Shown piece after piece: positions 1 to 63,251 of a stretch of 64,000 bases of DNA (positions are counted from its first letter, which is position 1; the number at the start of each line of letters is the position of its first letter). Under the pieces are notes generated by a model. The model was not told where the DNA came from, ran no database searches, and saw only the letters and a list, made by a program, of their open reading frames with translations. The position numbers were made by a program, and so were the translations under genes. This DNA is from Botryllus schlosseri (Eukaryota), in the NCBI GenBank assembly GCA_051294905.1, contig CM119372.1:26166001-26230000 (forward strand), given 5' to 3'.

Positions 1-388
1 AACTAGAACCAAGAAAGCGGTCTTTTGCGATGAATAAATGTTGATAGATCGCCAATATCATTGACTTCGCGAACTCAAACTTAATCTCTGTGCCAATATT
101 AAACAGCCGAAAATGCTGCCTGGAGTCAGATGACATATTGCGTTGCATTTCGCCGATACATATGAAAGTATATAAACCCGTGTTTGCAGAACCTCTTCTC
201 GTAATGGACGGTACGGGAATAAAAATATAGAAAGGATTAGTTTTTAAGTATTGACTCCTCACGCATCGCACGCGTAAATGTATTGAGTAAATCCGCTGGA
301 TTACAAAAATGTGTGATATCGTATTAGTGCTGATTGAGTAGAATCGTTTGGGTGGGGGAAGAGTGCATCGATCGTTGCGGCGCTCATT

Positions 389-4336: not shown

Positions 4337-5507
4337 CAGTGGTTCCCAACGTGGGCGATATCGCCCCCCAGGGGGCGATTTGGTGGTCTAGGGGGGCGAA
4401 AATAACGAAGGGGGCGATAGGGGGGCGAAAACGGACGAAGGGGGCGATAGGGGGCGAAAATAAAGAAGGGGGCGATAGGGGGGCGATGGCGCCTAAAACG
4501 GCTATATTGGAGTCGGGACCGTAACTACCGCACCCCAAACCCCCCAATTGAGGGTGGGGCGCCCGAAATCGAAGGAAGCCCAAAATTATTTCGTGAATTA
4601 ACATGAATGATAAAGTAATTTTTTAGAAATTCATGCGATTTTTTCAAGAATTTTTCGCGCCTGGCGCGATTTCACATTTTCATGTATCTTCATGTTGGGG
4701 TCCCCGTCACCCAACAAAAATACGCATGATTTATGGAAACGGGAGACTTCGGCTTCGGCCATTACTGCGCCACGACGCACCAAGACATATGAAGTTAGAG
4801 GCCATGTAACATGCGACTCCGAGAAGCGTGCCAGAACTATCATCAGCGAGAAGACCTTGGCCGAAAAGGAATGCCCGTGTGCTGACCGAAAACTTCGATA
4901 TATATACAACATATATGTTTAATTGTCAATAGGCGCCTCAATGGCTGGCGTCGAATGGTCCTGTCCTGGCGACCTTGACCCTACAGGACAAATGCCATCC
5001 CGCAAGGAAAAAATTATTTGCCAGTAAAGAAATACCAATATGAAATCATGTGCGTCTTTTAGTTTGACGATTTCCATATCTTCTGACATAGCAGATATAG
5101 GAGGTCACGAAATAGCATCATGTAAAGAAGTCAATATAACAACGATTCCGCCCGAAGAAGTTTAATTATTATTTAGGAGTCCTACCTTTTCCAATATACC
5201 ACATCGACCATATTGACCGATTCAAACATGAATTATATAAATTTGTCACGCTTCGCGCGCTTCGGTGAAATACGGTGACTCACCAGACAGTACATGAAAG
5301 GGTATAGCTGATATGTAGCGACAAAAAGCCCACTGACTGAGGGGAGTCTGGGGTTTGTTTTATCACCCTATGGGGCCAAAGACCAACATTTTTTTCGGAG
5401 AGGGGGGCTGACGAAGTGCTGTTTTTCGGTTCCCAATATTTGGGGGGCGATGATCGGTGTGGAGCTTCAAAAGGGGGCGATGAGTCGAAAAAGGTTGGGA
5501 ACCACTG
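4337..5507 (+). mobile_element. hAT (Buster/Charlie-type) non-autonomous element, family A copy 1
   Basis: TIRs cagtggttcccaac / gttgggaaccactg; perfect TSD ctatagag (4329-4336, 5508-5515); subterminal GGGGGCGA repeats; inverted copy at 29490-30527. Confidence 0.93.
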
Positions 5508-20712: not shown

Positions 20713-21793
20713 ATGCCTTATGCTTTATGTCATTATCAAGTTATTAGGTAAAATGTAATAATTGTTATGATATTACAGAAATTTACATCAAATAATATGC
20801 ATTTGACATTGCGAAATTAAAAACTCATCAATGAATGGTAAAATAACAAGCGAAGCGCAGATGTATGCTTGCCGCGAGGTACGACCTGTGCCCGCCATAT
20901 CGGATTCCTATATTTACAATTTACATAATTCAGAAATCCTCCTATGCCGAATTAAATATATTTGGGTCGGACAGATGATTCCGTAGCGCGATTTCGAGAA
21001 GTGCAAACAGCGATGTTGTGATTCAATACGAACTATTTCAACTACACTTTGTCGTTACAGTACACGGTATATTGTAACTATCCTGGTAATTCCGTTGCTA
21101 TAATTTGTTTTCATGTTGAATTAGGGTATATTCATGAGAACTGTTTCGCGGCAATCCAAAATAGGCTCCTCATTAATCCGTGAAACTCATCTTATGACAT
21201 AAGAAATGATTGTATAACCTCCAGAATGTGGACGATCAGTATGACTTCGAAAATGCGTAATTATACATGTATTTTGTATGTATGTATTAGTTCGGGGCAG
21301 ATTGAAAAATTCCCTAGTCCTATAGTCCGACTCTAACCCAATTTCTTCAAAATTTAATGCGGCTTCGATGCAACTCCTACCGTATTAAAATTTATAATAT
21401 GTAAACAGCTAATATCTACACCGGCTCTGGTTAAATCCTGCACACTACTACCTATTAGTTCAGTTTTAATAACACCATTGACAAACAGACAGATGGTGTT
21501 GCGATGAGTTCGGCACTCGGCTCCATATTGGCTAACATCTTTGTGGGGTTTCATGAAAAGAGATTGTTGGATAGTACCGATCGGCCATTGATGTATTATC
21601 GATATGTTGATGACACCTTTGTCATGTTTAATAACGAAGCTCAATGTGATTTGTTTCTTGCCAAATTAAATGACCTTCACCCTTCTTCGAAGTTTACTGT
21701 TGAAAAAGAGAATGACAATTCGATGCCTTTTTTGGATGTCTTTGTTGAGAAGATGAACAATAATTTTGTTACATCTGCATGTCTACCCTAAGG

Positions 21794-22943
21794 CAGTGTT
21801 GGGATGACTCGAGTCATGACTTGACTCGAGTCAGACTCGAGTCACCTTTTTCGTATGACTTGACTTGACTCGAGTCAATTTGCTGAAATGACTTGACTTG
21901 ACTTGACTCGGCGTATCAGAAATGTGGATTGACTCGTGACTTGGAGCAAAATTTACGAGTCAATTTCAAGTCATCAAGCAATCGATGTCGATAAAAATCA
22001 CCTTATCTTGCATATATGGTCAGATTGTTCGCGAAACGCTGGTGTAACCCGTGAGAGCGACCAATTATTCAATGATCGTGCGTTATACTGAGCCTCCATT
22101 GTTCTCTCACAAATAAATTTACCGCAAACGAAGTGATCGAAGCTTACAGCTTACGCTGTCGTAAACTTACATGGTAAAAGTAATTTAATAGTGAAATATC
22201 CATTTGTGTTCTCTGTTCTTACCTTGACCAAACCTTTTGTTTCATTGGCGCAGGCTCGAATTGTATCAGATCAATTTGCAAACGGGTAATGTATCGCATC
22301 TTATCAATTCGTTTCTCTATTTTCGCTGGTTACTATAAACTGAGGCTAGACAATTACTTGCGTAGTTTAGCATTTCTACGTATATGTGAGCGATACAGCG
22401 CGTTCTTGCGTGTATATTTAAGTCTATAATCGTCCATCGGTTCAGAATGAATGACCACTCAGCATCTGTATTTCAGACAGCTGGCAAATTAAATGACGTA
22501 AGCATTGCCCATTGTGTGATTATCTCTTACTACTATCCCTCTCTCATGGGTTTAGGGAAACTATTAGAGAGAGAGATAGTAGTAAGAGATAATCACACAC
22601 CCATGGCCTGTTTAGTAGGCCATGATATGCGTCATACTTCGAAAAGGCAACTTGACTTGAATTGTGACTTGACTTGACTTGACTCGAGTCACCTCCATAG
22701 TAAGAGATAATCACACACCCATGGCATTTTTAGTAGGCCATGATATGCGTAATACTTCGAAAAGGCAACTTGACTTGAATTGTGACTTGACTTGACTTGA
22801 CTCGAGTCACCTCCAAAAATCGAGTGACTTGACTTGACTCGAGTCACCTTCGAAAATCGATTGACTTGACTTGACTCGAGTCAAAATGTGCAATGACTCG
22901 AAATGACTCGTGACTCGAAGGTAGTGACTTGATCCCAACACTG
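21794..22943. mobile_element. hAT MITE with (GACTT/GACTCGAGTC)n subterminal repeats, inserted in the Penelope RT
   Basis: TIRs cagtgttgggat / atcccaacactg; perfect TSD ccctaagg; internal tandem duplication of about 118 bp (22580-22815). Confidence 0.94.
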
Positions 22944-23782
22944 CCCTAAGGCTACATTTAGTGGTCAGTATCTTTCATGGGATTCGTTTTACCCTATGAA
23001 ACGTAAAACCAATTTGATAAGAACCCTGGTACACAGGGCCCTGATGATTTGCAGTGATGACAAACTGGATTTTGAAATAAATACTATCAAATATATTTTC
23101 CTTGCCAATGGCTATCCAGAGCATATTGTCAAAGTGACTATTGAACGCAAAATACAAGATTTCCATAAAGATAAGCCATTTGGACCGAGAAGGTGCCCAG
23201 TTTATTTGCATCTCCCGTGGAAAGGCACAGCTTGTAACAGGTTTGAAAAATAGATTAAGTCCTCCGTGAGTCGTTGTTTTCCACAAGTGGAACGGAACCC
23301 CGTCTAATATTTACTACGAACTCTTTACTACCAGCAACGCGTAAGGATGTGCTACCTGCGATTGATCAGAGTAACATAATTTACCAATATGTGGTCGGTA
23401 TGTGGGTCGCACATCTCAGCGCTTGCAACAAAGAATTCGTCAACACTTTCCTCGTCAAATTAGGAATTCGCAGGGTGATGACATGGCTTCTCCATCATCA
23501 CAGTCCCTAGTTACCATGCGCGATTATGGTCAAGTAACAGCATGTAATTTTTGCCATCGGACCGCACCTCTTGAAACACTCTGAGTGTGCAAAACATTGC
23601 AATAACAATCAGTTTTCCATAGTTGCTCGTGGCCGTTCTCTTTTTCATTTAAAGGTCCTTGAATCAACTATCATAAAGCTGCAAAAGCCGATCCTCTGTC
23701 GCCAGAAGGAACTTATCTACACGCTGGGAATCTTCCATTGGTGTTGTTTTATCGTTCGGCTGTCTTACAGCTGATTTTGTGT

Positions 23783-24800
23783 TATTATTATTACAAATAT
23801 GAGTGGTGCTTTTCGCCATTGATGGCCTTGTGCGCCACGGTCGTCAGGAAATTCAAATCAAGCAGTAACTAAATGAACTTATTACAACTTATCACGAACT
23901 CAGCGACGGCGGTGGACAATTGCGATGACGAGAGTAGGTTGGTGAACGGTATATGTAACTGGTTGCAATAGGTTCTTAAAAATGATCGATGAAAGTCGAA
24001 TTTAATGCACGATTTTAAAAAGTGTTCGACTATTTCGATGACATCGCATTCTTCGCACATTGGAGAGTCCGAGCAGCCGATTCTGAACAAGTGGGATGCT
24101 ACTCCACAGTGTCCGGACCGTAATCGAAATATTAGGCGTTCGCTATGGCGACTGCCGTTTTTCTCGGGTCCTGTAGTGAGTGTGCTGTGGAATTGCTTGT
24201 AGTGTGATCCCCGTTCATCGGCAGAGTATTCGCATTGCCAGATCTCTTGGATAACTCTCTTCATCCAGGCTTTGGCGTCTGGCACGGTAATGATTGGAGT
24301 TTGGCTCGATCGATCTTGCGTTGACGAGCCTACTCGGGCTAATTCGTCTGCTTTTTCGTTACCTGGAATTCCTGCGTGTCCCGGAACCCAAGAAAATTCA
24401 ACAGTGATAGCGGTATCATGGATATGTTTAAATATATCCAATATGGATACAATCACGTTATTTGATGGTCGGTTCAGAGGTCTAGAAACCGTCGTCAATG
24501 CGGATAGGCAATCTGAGAAGATGACGTAAGTGTGGTTTCGCGTGCCGTGGTCGAGTATCCAAAATAATGCATGCTGAATCGCCTTCAATTCCATTCTAAA
24601 GGCTGATGATATCGGTGAGCAGGTACGAGAGATTGCGATATCATGTAGCGGAATATATACCCGTAACCAGCGCCATTGGAATTTTTGGAGCCGTCTGTGT
24701 AGATTGCCACACTGCCCCCATATCGTTCAAACATGAAATCTAGGCATATGGATTGGATGTTTTCCAGTATCTCGCATTTCGAAGTGTATTTAAGTAGATC
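23783..24800 (-). mobile_element. 5'-truncated I-group LINE (RNase H + C-terminal CCHC finger, (TAA)n tail)
   Basis: IYTDGSK, then one frameshift near 24660, then ELKAI..AL, IFSDCLSAL, FSWVPGHAGIPGNEKADELAR, RLRSGHC, C-x2-C-x7-H-x4-C. (TAA)n tail at 23783-23793. TSD cagctgattttgtgt at 23768-23782 and 24801-24815. Confidence 0.93.
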
Positions 24801-24938
24801 CAGCTGATTTTGTGTGCGTTGTACTGTAACAGTGCGTTGTTTACTCCCGTTCGCGACTCTGTGTACTCGTCATTATTAGGTCACAACGACAAAATTCTTT
24901 CTATGTTTTGAACTTGGTTAACCTCATTTACTGGCGGT

Positions 24939-24974
24939 CACTCCTGAAAAGGGCCAGTCGAAAAGCTTCGAGTG
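24939..24974 (+). ncRNA. Minimal type-I hammerhead-ribozyme-like motif at the Penelope 3' end (core variant CUGAAAA)
   Basis: cactc-CTGAAAA-gggccagtc-GAAA-agct-TC-gagtg: helix I cactc/gagtg, a short helix II, palindromic helix III, UC cleavage site, followed by AATAAA. Confidence 0.7.
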
Positions 24975-26439
24975 GAATAAATTTGCAATATGAACGTATT
25001 GTTTGCTGCAATATTGAAGTTCTGTACTCCGAAAAGCTTTCTACCTATTAGCAACGAGAAAAGATTGCCATCGGAGAAAACTGTGACATCGGGCAGTTAG
25101 CGGAGGTGGATGCCAGTCTAAGAAATAGCAAATGTTCGCTCGGCATCCTCCTGTCTGTTCATTATATCGCATTGTGCGTCTTGTATATCGCATTGTACAT
25201 TGTGTATGTGACTTGGGCAGATGAAAATATAATCCGATGAATATCGATATTGATATTACTCCGGTTGAACCAGAAAAAGTACGAATCCCGCTCTGAGTCA
25301 GGTCTCATCCTACTCCGCCAAAACTGAAAAATATCCGGCCCGTATCCAGTCCATGATTATATCCATGTCCAGCACTGTATGTATGTGTAATTAGAAATTG
25401 TTCTGAAACTTCAAATGTCTTTTTAGATCATGTAGGTACAATTTGGTCAATTCTATATGCTATAATTATACTTAGATTGGTAACTGCGGTCCTCTGATGA
25501 TCAGTTTGATCACTCTATGCACAGAACATGCATTTGCCCGTCTCGCTGAGAGGCCCACCATGATTGTAGGACAATCCATGCTATATCTGGTAATGACAAT
25601 ACACCTATTTGTTTCTTGTGTTAAAGTGCCGCAACAATCTCTAAATTTGGCAAGGTGATTACTACGAAAAAGTTCAACACCTTTTCGCCCATAACTGCTT
25701 ACGGCCTGTTCGGCCGGCTGCTTAGAAAATAATAAAAACAGTCAGCACCAGAAAAAAGACGACGAACTCCAGGTTGAATACTATAATGCCCTAGTGTGAG
25801 TGGTGATGACCTAACACTGGAAATATCCAAAAATCGTCCTTCGAAAACCAAAATCTTCATTTTTTCGAACAATCGGAGAGCCGCAATAGATCATTGCTAT
25901 AGGCTACCGATTTTATTACGGCGCTCCGATTGTTCGATACATTGGTCATTTGCAGATTTGTGCGGGATTTGGCTGGGCTACAGCGCCTTGACCAGATTAT
26001 AATTTATGTTGTAGGAATCAGTGGGACAGTAGATTTTGTTTAAGCCCATTTGTATGAAGTTTTGCGCTCAGGGCGCCAGCTGTGATATCTTAGAAATGAT
26101 GGATTCAGATTGCATACATGTATGGAAATATTGCGAGAACGGTTCGTGTGTTTCCAGAGTATATGATAATCACCAACGAATTGATTCCATTCGTCAGTCG
26201 TACAATAGGGATGACGGCTCGGCTCATAATTTACCAATGAGATACAGTGAATAATTTGCAGATCTTGCGGCTTTCCAATGCTTTTTCTACGCCATGGAAC
26301 GATATACGTAGCAATACATGGTTGTGATTTGCAATTATCAGTTACTTTTTGCTGCTGGAAGGATAGTACTCATTATTGTCGTTTAAATTACTGTATAATA
26401 TTCCTGTCGTTGCAGTATGGAAACAGTTGTATAGCTGTT

Positions 26440-29347: not shown

Positions 29348-30878
29348 CAGTGACTCTCAACCGCAGGTCCGTGGTGCCGTGATAAAGTTCATGGTATATT
29401 TTGTGTATGCGTGACAGTGGTGCAGGTGGTGTATGAAATCATTTAAAAGTGGCCTACAGGTCGTTTCGGATTAGTTCTACCATCTACATCAGTGGTTCCA
29501 ACCTTTTTCGACTCATCGCCCCCTTTTGAAGCTCCACACCGATCATCGCCCCCCAAATATTGGGAACCGAAAAACAGCACTTCGTCAGCCCCCCCCCGAA
29601 AAAAACGTTGGTCTTTGGCCCCATAGTGTGATAAACCAGACCCCAGACCCCCCTCAGCCAGTGGGCTTTTTTGTCGCTACTCACCGTCTTTCGTCTAAAC
29701 GCGCCAAGCGCGACAAATTTATATAATCGATGTTTGAATCGGTCAATATGGTCGATGTGGTATGTTGGAAAAGGTAGGACCCGTAAATAATAATTAAACA
29801 TATTCCTGCGGAATCGTTGTTATATTGACTTCTTTACATGATGCTATTTCGTGACCTCCTATATCTGCTATGTCAGAAGATATGGAAATCGTCAAAACGT
29901 ACCAAACTAAAAGACGCACATGATTTCATATTGGTATTTCTTTACTGGCAAATAATTTTTTCCTTTCGGGATGGCATTTGTCCTGTAGGGTTAAGGTCGC
30001 CAGGACAGCAACATTCGACGCCAGCCATTGAGGCGCATATGGACAATTAAACATATATGTGTATATATCGAAGTTTTCGGTCTTCTCGCTGCTGATCTTT
30101 CTGGCACACTTCTCGGAGTCGCAATTTACATGGCCTCTAACTTCATACGTCTTGGTGCGTCGTGGCGTAGTAATGAAGTCTCCCATTTCCATAAATCATG
30201 CGTATTTTTGTTGGGTGACGGGACCCCAACATCAAGATACATGAAAATATTAAGTCGCATGAATTTCTAAAAAAATACTCTATTATTCATGTTAGTTCAC
30301 GAAATAATTTTGGGCTTCCTTCGATTTCGGGCCCCCCACCCCCAATTGGGGGGTTTGGGGTGCGGTAGTTACGGTCCCGACTCCAATATAGCCGTTTTAA
30401 CGCGCCATCGCCCCCATTCGTTGTTTTCGCCCCCTATCGCCCCCTTCGTCCGTTTTCGCCCCCCTATCGCCCCCTTCTTTATTCTCGCCCCCCTAGACCG
30501 CCAAATCGCCCACTTCGGGAACCACTGATCTACATGGACACTAAGGATAGTTTTGAACTAATTTCGTTAAATACTTACCAGTGACAGTATAATAAAGGCT
30601 ATAGCAAACAGAAAAGTTGCATTTCTTTCAAAAGAATACTGAATAATCACAATGAAGTTAGTAGCATTTAGGAGACATTTGCGAGCTTCACCTTGCAAAA
30701 TCTTCAATAGAACCACGAATATAAATATCTACTATCAAAAAGACAGCATTAAATGAAGTTTACAATTAAACGTAATTAAAAAGTTGTGTTCGATTTTGAT
30801 TTTTGAAGATTCACAGGCCCGCTAAATTTGTTTTGAAGTTTTACCAGCCCGCGAGGTCAGAGAGGTTGAGAACCACTG
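29348..30878. mobile_element. Older hAT MITE hosting family A copy 2
   Basis: TIRs cagtgactctcaacc / ggttgagaaccactg; TSD atatagat / gtatagat. Confidence 0.82.
29490..30527 (-). mobile_element. hAT family A copy 2 (inverted relative to 4337-5507, with small deletions)
   Basis: cagtggttcc...gggaaccactg; perfect TSD atctacat; long near-identical stretches with copy 1. Confidence 0.93.
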
Positions 30879-45569: not shown

Positions 45570-48235
45570 AACAATTAATATAGATTACCGAATGCTTCAA
45601 CTACATGGCACGCAAGCCTAGTTCCACAATAAAAACGCCTTCGTTACCATGAGAATAAAACTCACCTCACGTATGGTCTGCTCCGTTGGCGCATATTATT
45701 TCGATATGTAGTTGAGTGATATCCTATGCGCCCCAAACTACTGTTTATCGGCAGAATGCCATCTTGTCGATTTTAAAATGTGATAGATCAATAGCTTCAC
45801 ACATAACGAATCCACTTTACACCTATGTTTGTGAATAATTTTTAATTATTGGATTCTACTGACTCGATATGACACTGATCGATATGTCTAAGTTTATATA
45901 TTGAGGTTTTTCTATGCTAAGACGTACGCTCATACATGTCCTCATGATCAAAACTGATTACGCCCATTTATAACTACTAACATTTTACGGAAAATCAGCT
46001 GTATGCATAGTCAAATATTCTTTAGTTTTCTGCGATGAATTACTGCAGCTTTGTACTCGACCGTGTGAAGTTATGTTTCATGATCGTGCTGTAGCACGCT
46101 CATTGCTGAAGGGTTGTCATGCTTTAAGCTAATCAATTCAATGAGCTCATGCTGTTGGATTAGCAATGTTGTACCAGAATAAAATGATTTGTACGGGACT
46201 GACGTGGAGTAATCCCACTATGTACCGATCCGGGATACGGGGGCATTAGTTTTAATTGGTTATGCGGGTTTGTGGCTTTTGAAGAGTTTAATCCCCTGGG
46301 ATCAGATGTGTATCACGGAATATTTTGGCAAGCTGATTGTAAATTGTTCTATTTGAGGAAGGTGTCCAATGTACTACAGACCAAATTGCTTCAAACGGAA
46401 ACATAAACTTTATTATAGCACTTGCCATTTCCGGGTGTCGGTTTGAAACGTGAAGTACATCTGAGTTTTAATAATAACCATACCAATCGTCAGATTATAT
46501 TTTCATCTGACCAAGACACACACAATGTACAATGCGATAAGACACAATGCGATGTAATGAACAGATAAGAGGATGCCGAACGTCCAGTTGCGGTCTCTTA
46601 AACTGGCATCCACCGCGATCTAGTGCTCGATAACACAGTTCTTTTCGATGTAATTCTCTATTCCGCGGCTCTTTCTTGCTCTTCCCATTCCTTGTCAGTG
46701 CGTTCTTTCGTCGGGTTTTTCACTGGGTTTTTCTGTCGCCGTAAGAACAGCGGCGGGGGACAGGAGGAGCCCAGATGAACCTCCGACGCGGAATCGATCT
46801 CTACTACAATCGATTTCATCCGATCCAGGCTTACATTGTCTTTTGAGTCGGGATTTGACGAATCAGAAATGTAGCCATGGGGGATGCGGGGTAAATGGAA
46901 CGGACTCGTAATTTGATTTGATGTAATTTTATGTTTAAAAAAAATCGAGGGGCACATAAAGTGACACGCTGAACATGCAATGTCGGTGGAAGCCCGCTTA
47001 AGACCACGAATTCGTCAGTAGATGGTATACATCAAAGTTCAGGTTCCAGATGACATGAATAGCTTCAACATAGATCTAATTGATGCATAGAAGCAGATTT
47101 GAATTTAAATCTTCAGGAAGTCAGACACACTTTTCTTTCAGCAGTTTTGTTACATGGGAATGTAGATACGTGAACAATGAACATGCCAATACTAAAAAAT
47201 GTCAAATACTGCACATCAATCTAGGCTTTGCGATGATAGTGATAGGAAATATATTTTCGAAAAACATTATGTAATCGTGCGACTGGCCGGATCAGGCCTG
47301 AGAATGTTTGATGTTTCTGGTTTAAAGTTTGCACATTGAGGGAGTCAAATAATTTGTAAATCTACTCGAAGTACATTTTACGACTTACTATATCCTATGT
47401 TGCAATCATCTGGTTGCATGTGTTCACCAATTTCGACACCAGACGATGAATAAAAATGGCTGAAATGACTCGTGGCAGACGCATAATGCATTTGTAGAAT
47501 GTATATTGTAGGCCTACATGAACTTTACAGTCTCGGCAGGGGCGTGCTCTTAATTTCTGATGATCTATCACTGCTTTAGCATCCGAACCAGACTTGATGT
47601 GATATGAGTAATGTTTTTGTTTGCATTTGCAGAAATTCGTCAGTCACACAGTGTGCCGAGATTTGGCCAGACCATATACCACCGCATATGGCAAATCGCT
47701 CGTAAAGTCGTCATGTTAGCAAAGGGTGTTAGGTAGTCTGGAGACCTGGCTTTGAATTTACAGTTGAATATCGGCCAACACTTAAAAACAACTCAGCGAT
47801 TAGGTCTTTCATATGCAGACGGTTACAGTGCTGGATCAATACACATTGTATGGAGAGCGGAGACTTGTTACAGGTTATATTATTATATGCAGTTGTATTA
47901 AGAAGCTATTGCTGAACCGATGAAGAATCCTTGCAACTTCAGACGTTCGGTCGTTAGGGTCTCCCACTGCCAGTAGTAAATATTCGTTTAGTCGAGCTGT
48001 TTAGAAACACGCAATCACTGACATCAATGATAATTACCATGGTCAACTATTGTCACAGCTCATATTTTTTCCTAACAGAACCAGCCATAGCCATACCACA
48101 GATTTTATTTCATATATCTCGCATCTGGTCATCCGGTGTGAGACTGCGTGATAGTTGTGCGAGCGATAATAAAATCATATTCAGGGTTTATCAGAATCAC
48201 CATGAACTTCTATACAGTATAATGTATGTATGCAA

Positions 48236-61959: not shown

Positions 61960-62456
61960 CACACTTGGACAACTAAATAATTCTAGTTGTCTAATTATAC
62001 TAATTAGAGCGAAATGCCTGTAACCTAATTCTAATCTAATTTGCGTAATGTGACTTTGCTCTAATTTCAATTCTAATCTAATTTCTGCCGATTCAATTTC
62101 CAAGTTAGTAATTCTAATCCTAATCTAAATCGGGAAAAAAATATTTGAGGAACTTCTTGGAGGTACAGAACTTCAGTGTGCGATTGAATAGTATATTAAT
62201 ATTGGGATGAACCCGAATATTTTCGGCTGACACTCGTCAGGGGTGATCGTCACCAAATGGTAGAGAAGTGTAAAGAACATCGTATATCAACAATCGTATC
62301 ACTATATAGTTAAAATTCTAATTCTAATTTAATTTGAAAAACAAACTGAGCAGATATTATCATAATTATTATCTAATTTGTAAGTAACAGAGTAGCTATA
62401 ATTCTAATTATAATCTAAATTGGAATAGCTGAAAATTCTCCAGTTGTTCAAGTCTA
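61960..62456. mobile_element. Intronic MITE with CTAAT-rich subterminal repeats
   Basis: Ends acttggacaact / agttgttcaagt. Confidence 0.6.
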
Positions 62457-62774: not shown

Positions 62775-62845
62775 GTATGGTTTACGTGTCATGTCGAACG
62801 TACTTATTCGGTATGCGGTGGATATCAACACGCCATAGAATACAT

Positions 62846-63251
62846 CAGTGGTTCCCAACGTTGGCTATATCTCCCCCCAGTGGGCGATTTTAAGAAACAG
62901 GAGGGCGAAAACACCAAAGGGGGCGAGTTGGCGGCTAAAATTTCTGAACGTACGGAGAGAGATATTTAATTAACACGGTCAAAAAGTGTACGTGGAGACA
63001 GCTTATTCTGTATATGACGCGAAAGTTGACTAAAAATAAGGTCAACTCAGCGGGAAATGGACGCGGAAGCCGGTTTACCGAGAACCTACTCGGGAAAATG
63101 ACATTCATTTCTAGTCAATTCACCAGCGATCAGAATTAGGTGAAAAATATCCCGTTTACATGTCCGCTTTTTCGGATCCGTAAATATGGTGTGGGGGATT
63201 TGTGTTGATCTAGATAAGGGAGCGATGAGTCGAGAAGGTTGGGAACCACTG
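62846..63251. mobile_element. Intronic hAT MITE with family A-type TIRs
   Basis: cagtggttcccaac / gttgggaaccactg; TSD gaatacat / gaatagat. Confidence 0.9.

Follow-up and report, generated by a model that had tools for sequence, protein, structure and literature searches.

A mutated minimal hammerhead motif in a Penelope-like element of Botryllus schlosseri, and a likely loop II pseudoknot in its relatives

A truncated Penelope-like element at the locus

The window analysed here is a stretch of 64,000 nucleotides from Botryllus schlosseri (assembly GCA_051294905.1, contig CM119372.1, positions 26,166,001 to 26,230,000 of the forward strand), and all coordinates are counted from its first letter. 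Within it lies a 5'-truncated Penelope-like element (PLE) with reverse transcriptase (RT) and GIY-YIG domains, which spans 21459-25040 and carries a hammerhead motif in its terminal repeat (Table 1). The element is bounded by an 11-bp target site duplication (TSD); a match of this length arose by chance in 2 of 996 random 60x60 window pairs. The initial annotation had placed the motif just before an AATAAA and inside the TSD of the element, and both placements hold, with AATAAA at 24976-24981 and an exact 11-mer at either end.

Table 1 Features of the Penelope-like element and of a related remnant in the window.
Feature	Position	Strand	Basis
Left TSD, 11 bp	21448-21458	+	Exact match to 25041-25051
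PLE ORF, RT core, 5'-truncated	21459-21793	+	tblastn, residues 478-583 of P0001; RVT_1
hAT-like MITE (by inference), nested, non-coding	21794-22943	.	12-bp inverted ends, 8-bp TSD
PLE ORF, thumb and C-terminal GIY-YIG endonuclease	22944-23738	+	P0001 residues 587-850
Nested LINE fragment, 5'-truncated, not PLE	23783-24800	-	RNase H and CCHC, TAA-repeat tail
Upstream partner strand of loop II	24930-24935	+	Six Watson-Crick pairs with 24953-24958
Minimal type I hammerhead, decayed at core position 8 (24949)	24939-24974	+	Sequence, family depth, covariance model
Tail, first 16-17 PLE ORF codons, includes half-motif	24990-25040	+	Protein match
Right TSD	25041-25051	+	Junction in one X1 contig, 25008-25150, without differences
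Solo terminal-repeat remnant, sister PLE family	62138-62254	-	Covariance model 32.1 bits, protein match

The two ORF pieces were aligned to P0001, an intact relative of 850 aa with RT and GIY-YIG domains, which shares 73% identity with the RT/thumb pieces. Pfam matches to the window element are modest, with RVT_1 at E 1.5e-4 (under the curated cut-off) and a weak GIY-YIG at E 0.012; P0001 itself gives RVT_1 plus a weak GIY-YIG. The downstream piece bears a stop and frameshifts. Inspection of the linker between RT and GIY-YIG revealed no CX2-5CxxC zinc finger, so that the element has the single ORF, C-terminal GIY-YIG and finger-free linker of the Penelope/Poseidon clade (PMC8557442). The MITE-like insertion that splits the ORF has duplicated its target (21786-21793 = 22944-22951), and the PLE protein match picks up again at 22948. 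Repeats occur inside this insertion, which also includes a tandem duplication of 118 bp (22580-22815) and has a hairpin of 33 bp at 22513-22599.

The longest ORF of the window comes from the LINE fragment, which lies antisense to the PLE, matches Pfam RNase_H at E 1e-11 and has a frameshift near 24660-24740. The idea that this RNase H ORF forms part of the PLE was rejected because the fragment has a 15-bp TSD of its own (23768-23782 = 24801-24815), a TAA tail and LINE-type homologs, namely the C-termini of RT or APE-RT-RNase H proteins. Among the contigs of other PLE copies that were listed, the match starts at 24801-24809. With the LINE discounted, about 170 bases separate the ORF end from the motif, and the distance is 106-196 in most related loci. 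The motif lies between an ORF end and an ORF start, inside the TSD, which is the pseudo-LTR position.

Depth in the DNA run X1 reaches up to 71948 over 24860-25035, as against 1288 over the upstream repeat and 21.6 for the junction contig; the excess fits many short terminal remnants, depth being no copy number. Most RNA reads were less than 95% alike to the window (148/155 and 689/726 in two RNA runs) and therefore derive from other copies, which makes them uninformative on expression of the window locus.

Anatomy and detection of the hammerhead motif

A direct read-out of the sequence bore out the letters of the motif that had been proposed at 24939-24974. The two strands of helix I are 24939-24943 and 24970-24974, with a U.G pair at 24938/24975 possible as a sixth, and they enclose a core at 24944-24950 in which C3 is 24944, position 8 is A24949 and A9 is 24950. 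G10.1 (24951) and C11.1 (24959) are followed by the GAA of G12-A14 (24960-24962), a six-base palindrome (24963-24968) and C17 (24969). In intact copies a cut is predicted after C24969. The earlier assignment to the PLE hammerheads, of type I and with a palindromic helix III, is supported. Helix I has 5-6 pairs in the sequences compared, within the 4-6 expected of the minimal type I motif.

A relaxed descriptor, consisting of the hammerhead pattern with any base allowed at positions 3 and 8, had this site as its single match in the window; on 20 versions of the window simulated with an order-3 Markov model it matched once, and not at all under strict terms. A covariance model was then trained on six loci, all outside the window. 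It ranked the motif first in the window with 39.5 bits (E about 2e-9 by a rough calibration), followed by a second site at 62246-62209, with every other window site at 13.6 bits or less. Searching with hammerhead models had been suggested in the initial annotation, and the outcome was divided: our own model detected the motif, while no Rfam hammerhead family (clan CL00010 and others) matched 24900-25050 or 62180-62290 at E<=10. The related locus L013 reached 15 bits on RF00163, where the gathering cut-off is 34.

Thermodynamic folding was similarly reticent. The fold z-score of the motif region is only -1.3, and single-strand folding in ViennaRNA does not yield the hammerhead fold for the window copy, which is placed at +1.8 kcal/mol against a minimum free energy of -13.4 for the monomer and at -11.9 against -31.1 for the dimer, the core and pseudoknot being unscored in both cases. 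The silence of Rfam and the slight z-score are what an accidental hammerhead look-alike would give, but we consider the odds of such an accident to be vanishingly small. The position and core of the motif are homologous in distant PLE families, and chance resemblance is refuted by covariation, by the score from an independently trained model, and by a pairing survey of 25 sites presented below.

Core position 8 in other copies of the family

The motif has an A at core position 8, and it had been suggested that the copy was either decayed or a family-specific core variant, to be settled by aligning other copies. Copies were read from four runs (up to four studies) aligned to 24700-25150 at 80% likeness. 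X1 and X7 are DNA runs assembled into contigs, X1 perhaps from the same sample as the window assembly, and X23 and X21 are RNA runs used as reads. The family base proved to be G in all four. At 24949, G accounts for 19042/19605 of the depth in X1 (105 contigs) and 574/592 in X7 (37 contigs), about 97% in each, and it was found in 26/31 reads of X23 and 243/273 reads of X21, where one kind of copy dominates. Among the rows listed for the four runs there was no change at C3. Of the two options only decay survives: A8 is private to the window copy and is not a family variant. This copy has at least 10 private differences from the family majority in 222 bases (4.5%, a lower bound), and the chance that decay of this extent strikes at least one of the 11 fixed core positions is about 0.4.

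Pairing between positions 3 and 8 tells a similar story. In an alignment of eight sequences, described below, C24944/A24949 of the window copy is the sole cell in which these positions do not pair. Across 34 de-duplicated sites outside the window they are U.G in 28, U-A in three, C-G in two and C/A in one, the last (L077+) being a register artefact caused by a deletion. An assembly error at A24949 is possible, because no listed contig confirms this base at the locus; the locus-exact contig among those listed, from X1, spans 25008-25150 and does not include the position. Whether A24949 is decay or an assembly error, a C3-A8 family is absent. The G8A change breaks the C3-G8 pair and the window copy would therefore not cut, making it a likely inactive one. 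In the PLE hammerhead of Anolis, either G8C or C3G abolishes cleavage (PMC11167929).

The element ends within the start of a further ORF

Downstream of the motif, the translation of 24990-25028 agrees with residues 1-13 of P0001 at 9 of 13 positions. The PLE thus ends within the start of the next copy of its ORF, which is the known Penelope tail (PMC11167929; PMC8557442), and at L037, L006 and L017 the ORF continues through from the motif. In the best-sampled related family, tails end at +18..28 from the ATG in 12 of 26 cases and at +44..57 in 14 of 26, the latter including one tandem read-through (L037). The window copy, which ends at +48..51, is of the long kind. Two groups of ends about 30 bases apart in the related family correspond to an optional tail of 30-40 bp, and a two-start-site model that fits such paired end groups has been described (PMC11167929).

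A second half-motif had been noted exactly at the element end, at 25031-25041. Its letters are present, although the TSD begins at its last base, and a ribozyme role for it found no support. The half-motif coincides with codons 14-17 of the ORF start, and its palindrome depends on three T (25038-25040) that are private to the window junction. After 25037, the loose ends of reads and contigs in all four runs start with C-T-A-T rather than T; in the DNA runs their agreement beyond these bases is 0.47-0.53, and X1 depth at 25037 drops from 22548 to 783. We also rejected the idea that cleavage at a second cut site sets the end of the element, as other copies lack the second palindrome.

These data bear on a reading in which C3-A8 is a working, family-specific core and 25031-25041 serves as its partner strand in cis. 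A8 and the second motif do occur together in the window copy, the tail shares eight bases with the ribozyme here and nine in the family majority, and positions 3 and 8 vary within the clade between C-G, U.G and U-A. Against this, the family carries G8 at 97% of depth, the C that follows 25037 in other copies removes the second palindrome, 25031-25041 has no helix I partner downstream and consists of ORF codons, and the tails of related families show no such repeat. At the family level the run data refute the proposal, and we give it very little credence overall.

Some smaller observations concern the same region. In the family majority, tail positions 25029-25037 repeat nine bases of the ribozyme 3' core (24958-24966); this 8-9 base match is absent from related families and is likely due to chance. 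Six bases of the TSD (25044-25049, 21451-21456) are those with which other copies continue after 25036, which may reflect microhomology between tail and target in this one case. AATAAA has no support as a 3' end signal, given that the element extends about 60 bases further and RNA ends do not accumulate there, and in related families a start codon occupies its place. Neither RNA starts nor RNA ends piled up at the motif or at AATAAA in two standard RNA libraries, a type of library that captures cleavage ends poorly. Behind 24948, seven loose-ended X23 reads stop shortly after entering the core and run on into poly(A) and adapter; they probably represent one transcript ending 17-20 bases before the predicted cut site.

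Conservation and covariation of the helices

A structural alignment was built from eight hand-picked sequences, comprising the two window sites and six loci that are partly kin. Covariation of the helices, another check named by the initial annotation, is evident in helix I, where 6/6 pairs change on both sides in these eight sequences. The run data show the same trend as marginal, unphased frequencies: 24943 C>G is found at 80% in X1, 71% in X7 and 21/31 in X23, and the mirror change 24970 G>C at 67%, 57% and 15/22, respectively. X21 lacks the mirror change, with 32/53 at 24943 and 5/287 at 24970. The palindrome that would form helix III is paired in 100% of cells, with three spellings among the eight sequences.

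The short helix II of the first description fared less well. Its G10.1-C11.1 pair is invariant (8/8), but the second pair holds in just five of the eight sequences, so a two-pair helix II, which was tried first, was dropped; helix II is better read as one G-C pair. U4, G5, A6, A9, G12, A13, A14, A15.1 and U16.1 are likewise invariant (8/8), position 17 is never G, and positions 3 and 8 pair in 7/8. Overall, the family core fits CUGANGA...GAAA...UH, with G8 at 97% of depth and the remaining core positions invariant in all eight.

Loop II is complementary to an upstream strand

Immediately upstream of helix I lies a strand complementary to loop II (Table 1). A survey was performed with a descriptor that specified the core, a G, seven bases, a C and GAAA and demanded no pairing; applied to the window and 80 metagenome loci, it returned 25 distinct sites, 16 of them from one family. 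Partner strands were scored where they start 12-19 bases upstream of position 3. We see at least five Watson-Crick pairs out of seven in 24/25 sites and at least six in 16/25, compared with 1997/20000 and 220/20000 random places, respectively. Only L077- falls short; its upstream flank differs from the rest, and a truncation at that point is likely. The pairing letters differ across at least eight families (both window sites, L001, L003/L080, L005, L006, L013 and L017), although in an off-diagonal control the upstream strand of L017 also made six pairs with the window loop. In an alignment of eight rows, five of which represent one family, 6/7 pairs change on both sides, and pairing is 94% in register as against 29-40% when the strands are slid. 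The partner strand always falls within offsets -17 to -13, the loop being seven bases by search design, and a gap of 1-4 bases separates it from helix I in the families compared.

This covariation suggests that loop II and the upstream strand likely form a pseudoknot, while complementarity by itself fits a pseudoknot or a competing hairpin alike. In the latter case, which is the main rival reading, the strand would be an off-switch: its hairpin with loop II would shut in the core together with the 5' strand of helix I and keep the ribozyme inactive, pending refolding by a second copy or by the element protein. The ViennaRNA centroid of 24900-25045 indeed draws 24930-24935/24953-24958 as a plain helix without helix I, the PLE hammerhead of Anolis needs a protein to cleave (PMC11167929), and the covariation is compatible with such a switch. 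On the other side stand the invariance of G10.1-C11.1 (8/8) and the narrow range of partner offsets, and a single G-C pair closing a loop held in a 6-bp helix is the geometry seen in the crystal of an active hammerhead of the pseudoknotted (PK) kind (PMC11300833). We therefore judge an off-switch improbable, if well worth keeping in mind, and prefer the pseudoknot.

Comparison with known hammerheads and Penelope-like elements

The link between PLEs and hammerheads has been known since 2014, when minimal hammerheads were described from metazoan PLEs (Cervera 2014, PMC4209133). The motif here shares with them a type I topology, a short helix I, a palindromic helix III suited to dimers, the conserved G10.1-C11.1 pair, and a location in the terminal repeat, where a truncated copy mostly retains just one motif at its 3' end. 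It differs from the published examples in helix II, which has 3-8 pairs in the rows compared from their Fig. S3 and one pair here, and in lacking the extra base that they usually have between A9 and 10.1; in addition, loop II pairs here with the upstream strand, and the window copy carries G8A. Cores with U3-A8 (in the text) and U3.G8 (Saccoglossus row of Fig. S3) already appear in PMC4209133, and we dropped U3.G8 as a novelty on account of that figure.

The PK hammerhead (PDB 8YDC, Zhan et al. 2024, PMC11300833) has a single G10.1-C11.1 pair and a 6-bp loop helix made with a strand linked to helix I, and in its crystal G8 pairs with C3, which places the 2'-OH of G8. The one-pair stem and a 6-bp loop helix 5' of helix I are also found here, as judged by covariation alone. 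In the PK hammerhead, however, the partner strand comes from a helix IV hairpin and reaches helix I through an AUA4 triplex linker, whereas here, on inspection, only a few bases separate the strand from helix I, too few for a helix IV or a linker. Helix III here is a bare palindrome that would depend on a second copy, and a eukaryotic retroelement serves as host. Perreault et al. (2011, PMC3088659) put the share of hammerheads with a predicted pseudoknot at about 40%, spread over all three types, and assayed one with a 1-bp stem II.

A loop II contact has been published for other hammerheads. We found no description of a pseudoknotted PLE hammerhead in the literature consulted, including PMC10085705, PMC7936874, PMC8557442, PMC6765202 and bioRxiv 10.64898/2026.07.22.740005, which does not establish its absence from print. 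The pairing leaves the ribozyme class unchanged.

The Poseidon element PAc of Anolis carolinensis (Frangieh et al. 2024, PMC11167929) is a useful comparison at the level of the element. Both have an RT with C-terminal GIY-YIG and a hammerhead at the junction of pseudo-LTR and ORF, and both end within the ORF start at two sites, with a 30-40 bp tail. In PAc the start codon lies inside stem II and the cut falls 26 bases into the ORF, whereas here the predicted cut lies upstream of the ATG, by 21 bases in the window family and by 3 in the L001 family; ends reach 18-57 bases into the ORF here and about 111-118 in PAc.

A proposed mechanism of cleavage in intact copies

We propose, with a probability of roughly 0.7, that the window motif is a mutated and likely inactive copy, and that intact copies of this abundant family likely cut themselves as palindrome-paired tandem transcripts braced by a pseudoknot. 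Tandem PLE copies would be transcribed together so that two motifs meet, and their six-base palindromes would pair to form helix III, following the dimer model (PMC4209133). The helix between loop II and the 5' strand would replace helix II in the manner of the PK hammerhead crystal structure, with G12 acting as the putative base and the 2'-OH at position 8 as the putative acid. The cut would fall after position 17, upstream of the ATG, and reverse transcription would start farther downstream, within the ORF start, so that a tail remains.

The structure could instead be kept for a non-catalytic job, such as protein binding, translation control at the start codon or template handling, with cleavage marginal or absent in vivo. 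Metazoan PLE hammerheads are weakly active in vitro (PMC4209133), and two RNA runs gave no RNA ends at the site. In Anolis, cleavage is protein-dependent and dispensable for insertion in vitro, where cleavage mutants insert normally, and no RNA-seq ends are reported to map to the cut site (PMC11167929). A related family moreover tolerates U3.G8 in 28/34 sites. Yet the catalytic positions are invariant (8/8), 17 is never G, and 3 and 8 pair in 7/8; selection across the whole core is hard to account for without catalysis, and we regard a purely non-catalytic role as rather unlikely.

Returning to self-cleavage of intact copies, a bolder proposal is that this PLE clade has an undescribed hybrid hammerhead, which combines a PK-type one-pair stem II, a 6-7 bp pseudoknot and a two-copy palindromic helix III; such a ribozyme would be fast, gated by dimerisation, would cut a few bases upstream of a start codon, and would have been missed across many animals by descriptors with a longer helix II. 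We put this forward tentatively, as something that may well turn out otherwise. A8 being ordinary decay and the half-motif an ordinary tail, the lasting point is the covarying loop II pairing in a PLE clade, a structural lead with good support from comparison across at least eight families. The 36-base motif on its own would omit the upstream strand. The lead offers a test of whether PLE hammerheads are fast when supplied with the right flank, as well as an improved search pattern.

Related families and other repeats in the window

The second site found by the covariance model, on the minus strand, is the hammerhead of a sister family, whose core is intact with C3 (62240) and G8. Its palindrome differs from that of the first motif and its upstream partner strand is shared, with one mismatch; an ORF-start tail of 21 codons follows, in which the start codon is seemingly decayed. 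Elsewhere, a related PLE family, with L001, L007, L008 and L020 among its loci, normally carries U3.G8 and U17 in a motif some 190 bases past the ORF end, and L002 has U3-A8. At L013, the hammerhead is followed at once by a histone 3' stem-loop match of 21 bits (1319-1350), which is below cut-off and clipped where the searched sequence stops, and the PLE ORF start lies about 75 bases on; the match may be due to chance or to insertion near a histone gene.

The right flank of the PLE (25062-25240) is a dispersed repeat, 77-87% alike to 46487-46657 and present in both RNA runs. Finally, 4365-5498 and 29498-30519 are inverted copies of a repeat of about 1.1 kb with 90-96% identity, likely a young DNA transposon family, which has a shorter relative at 62840-62940.
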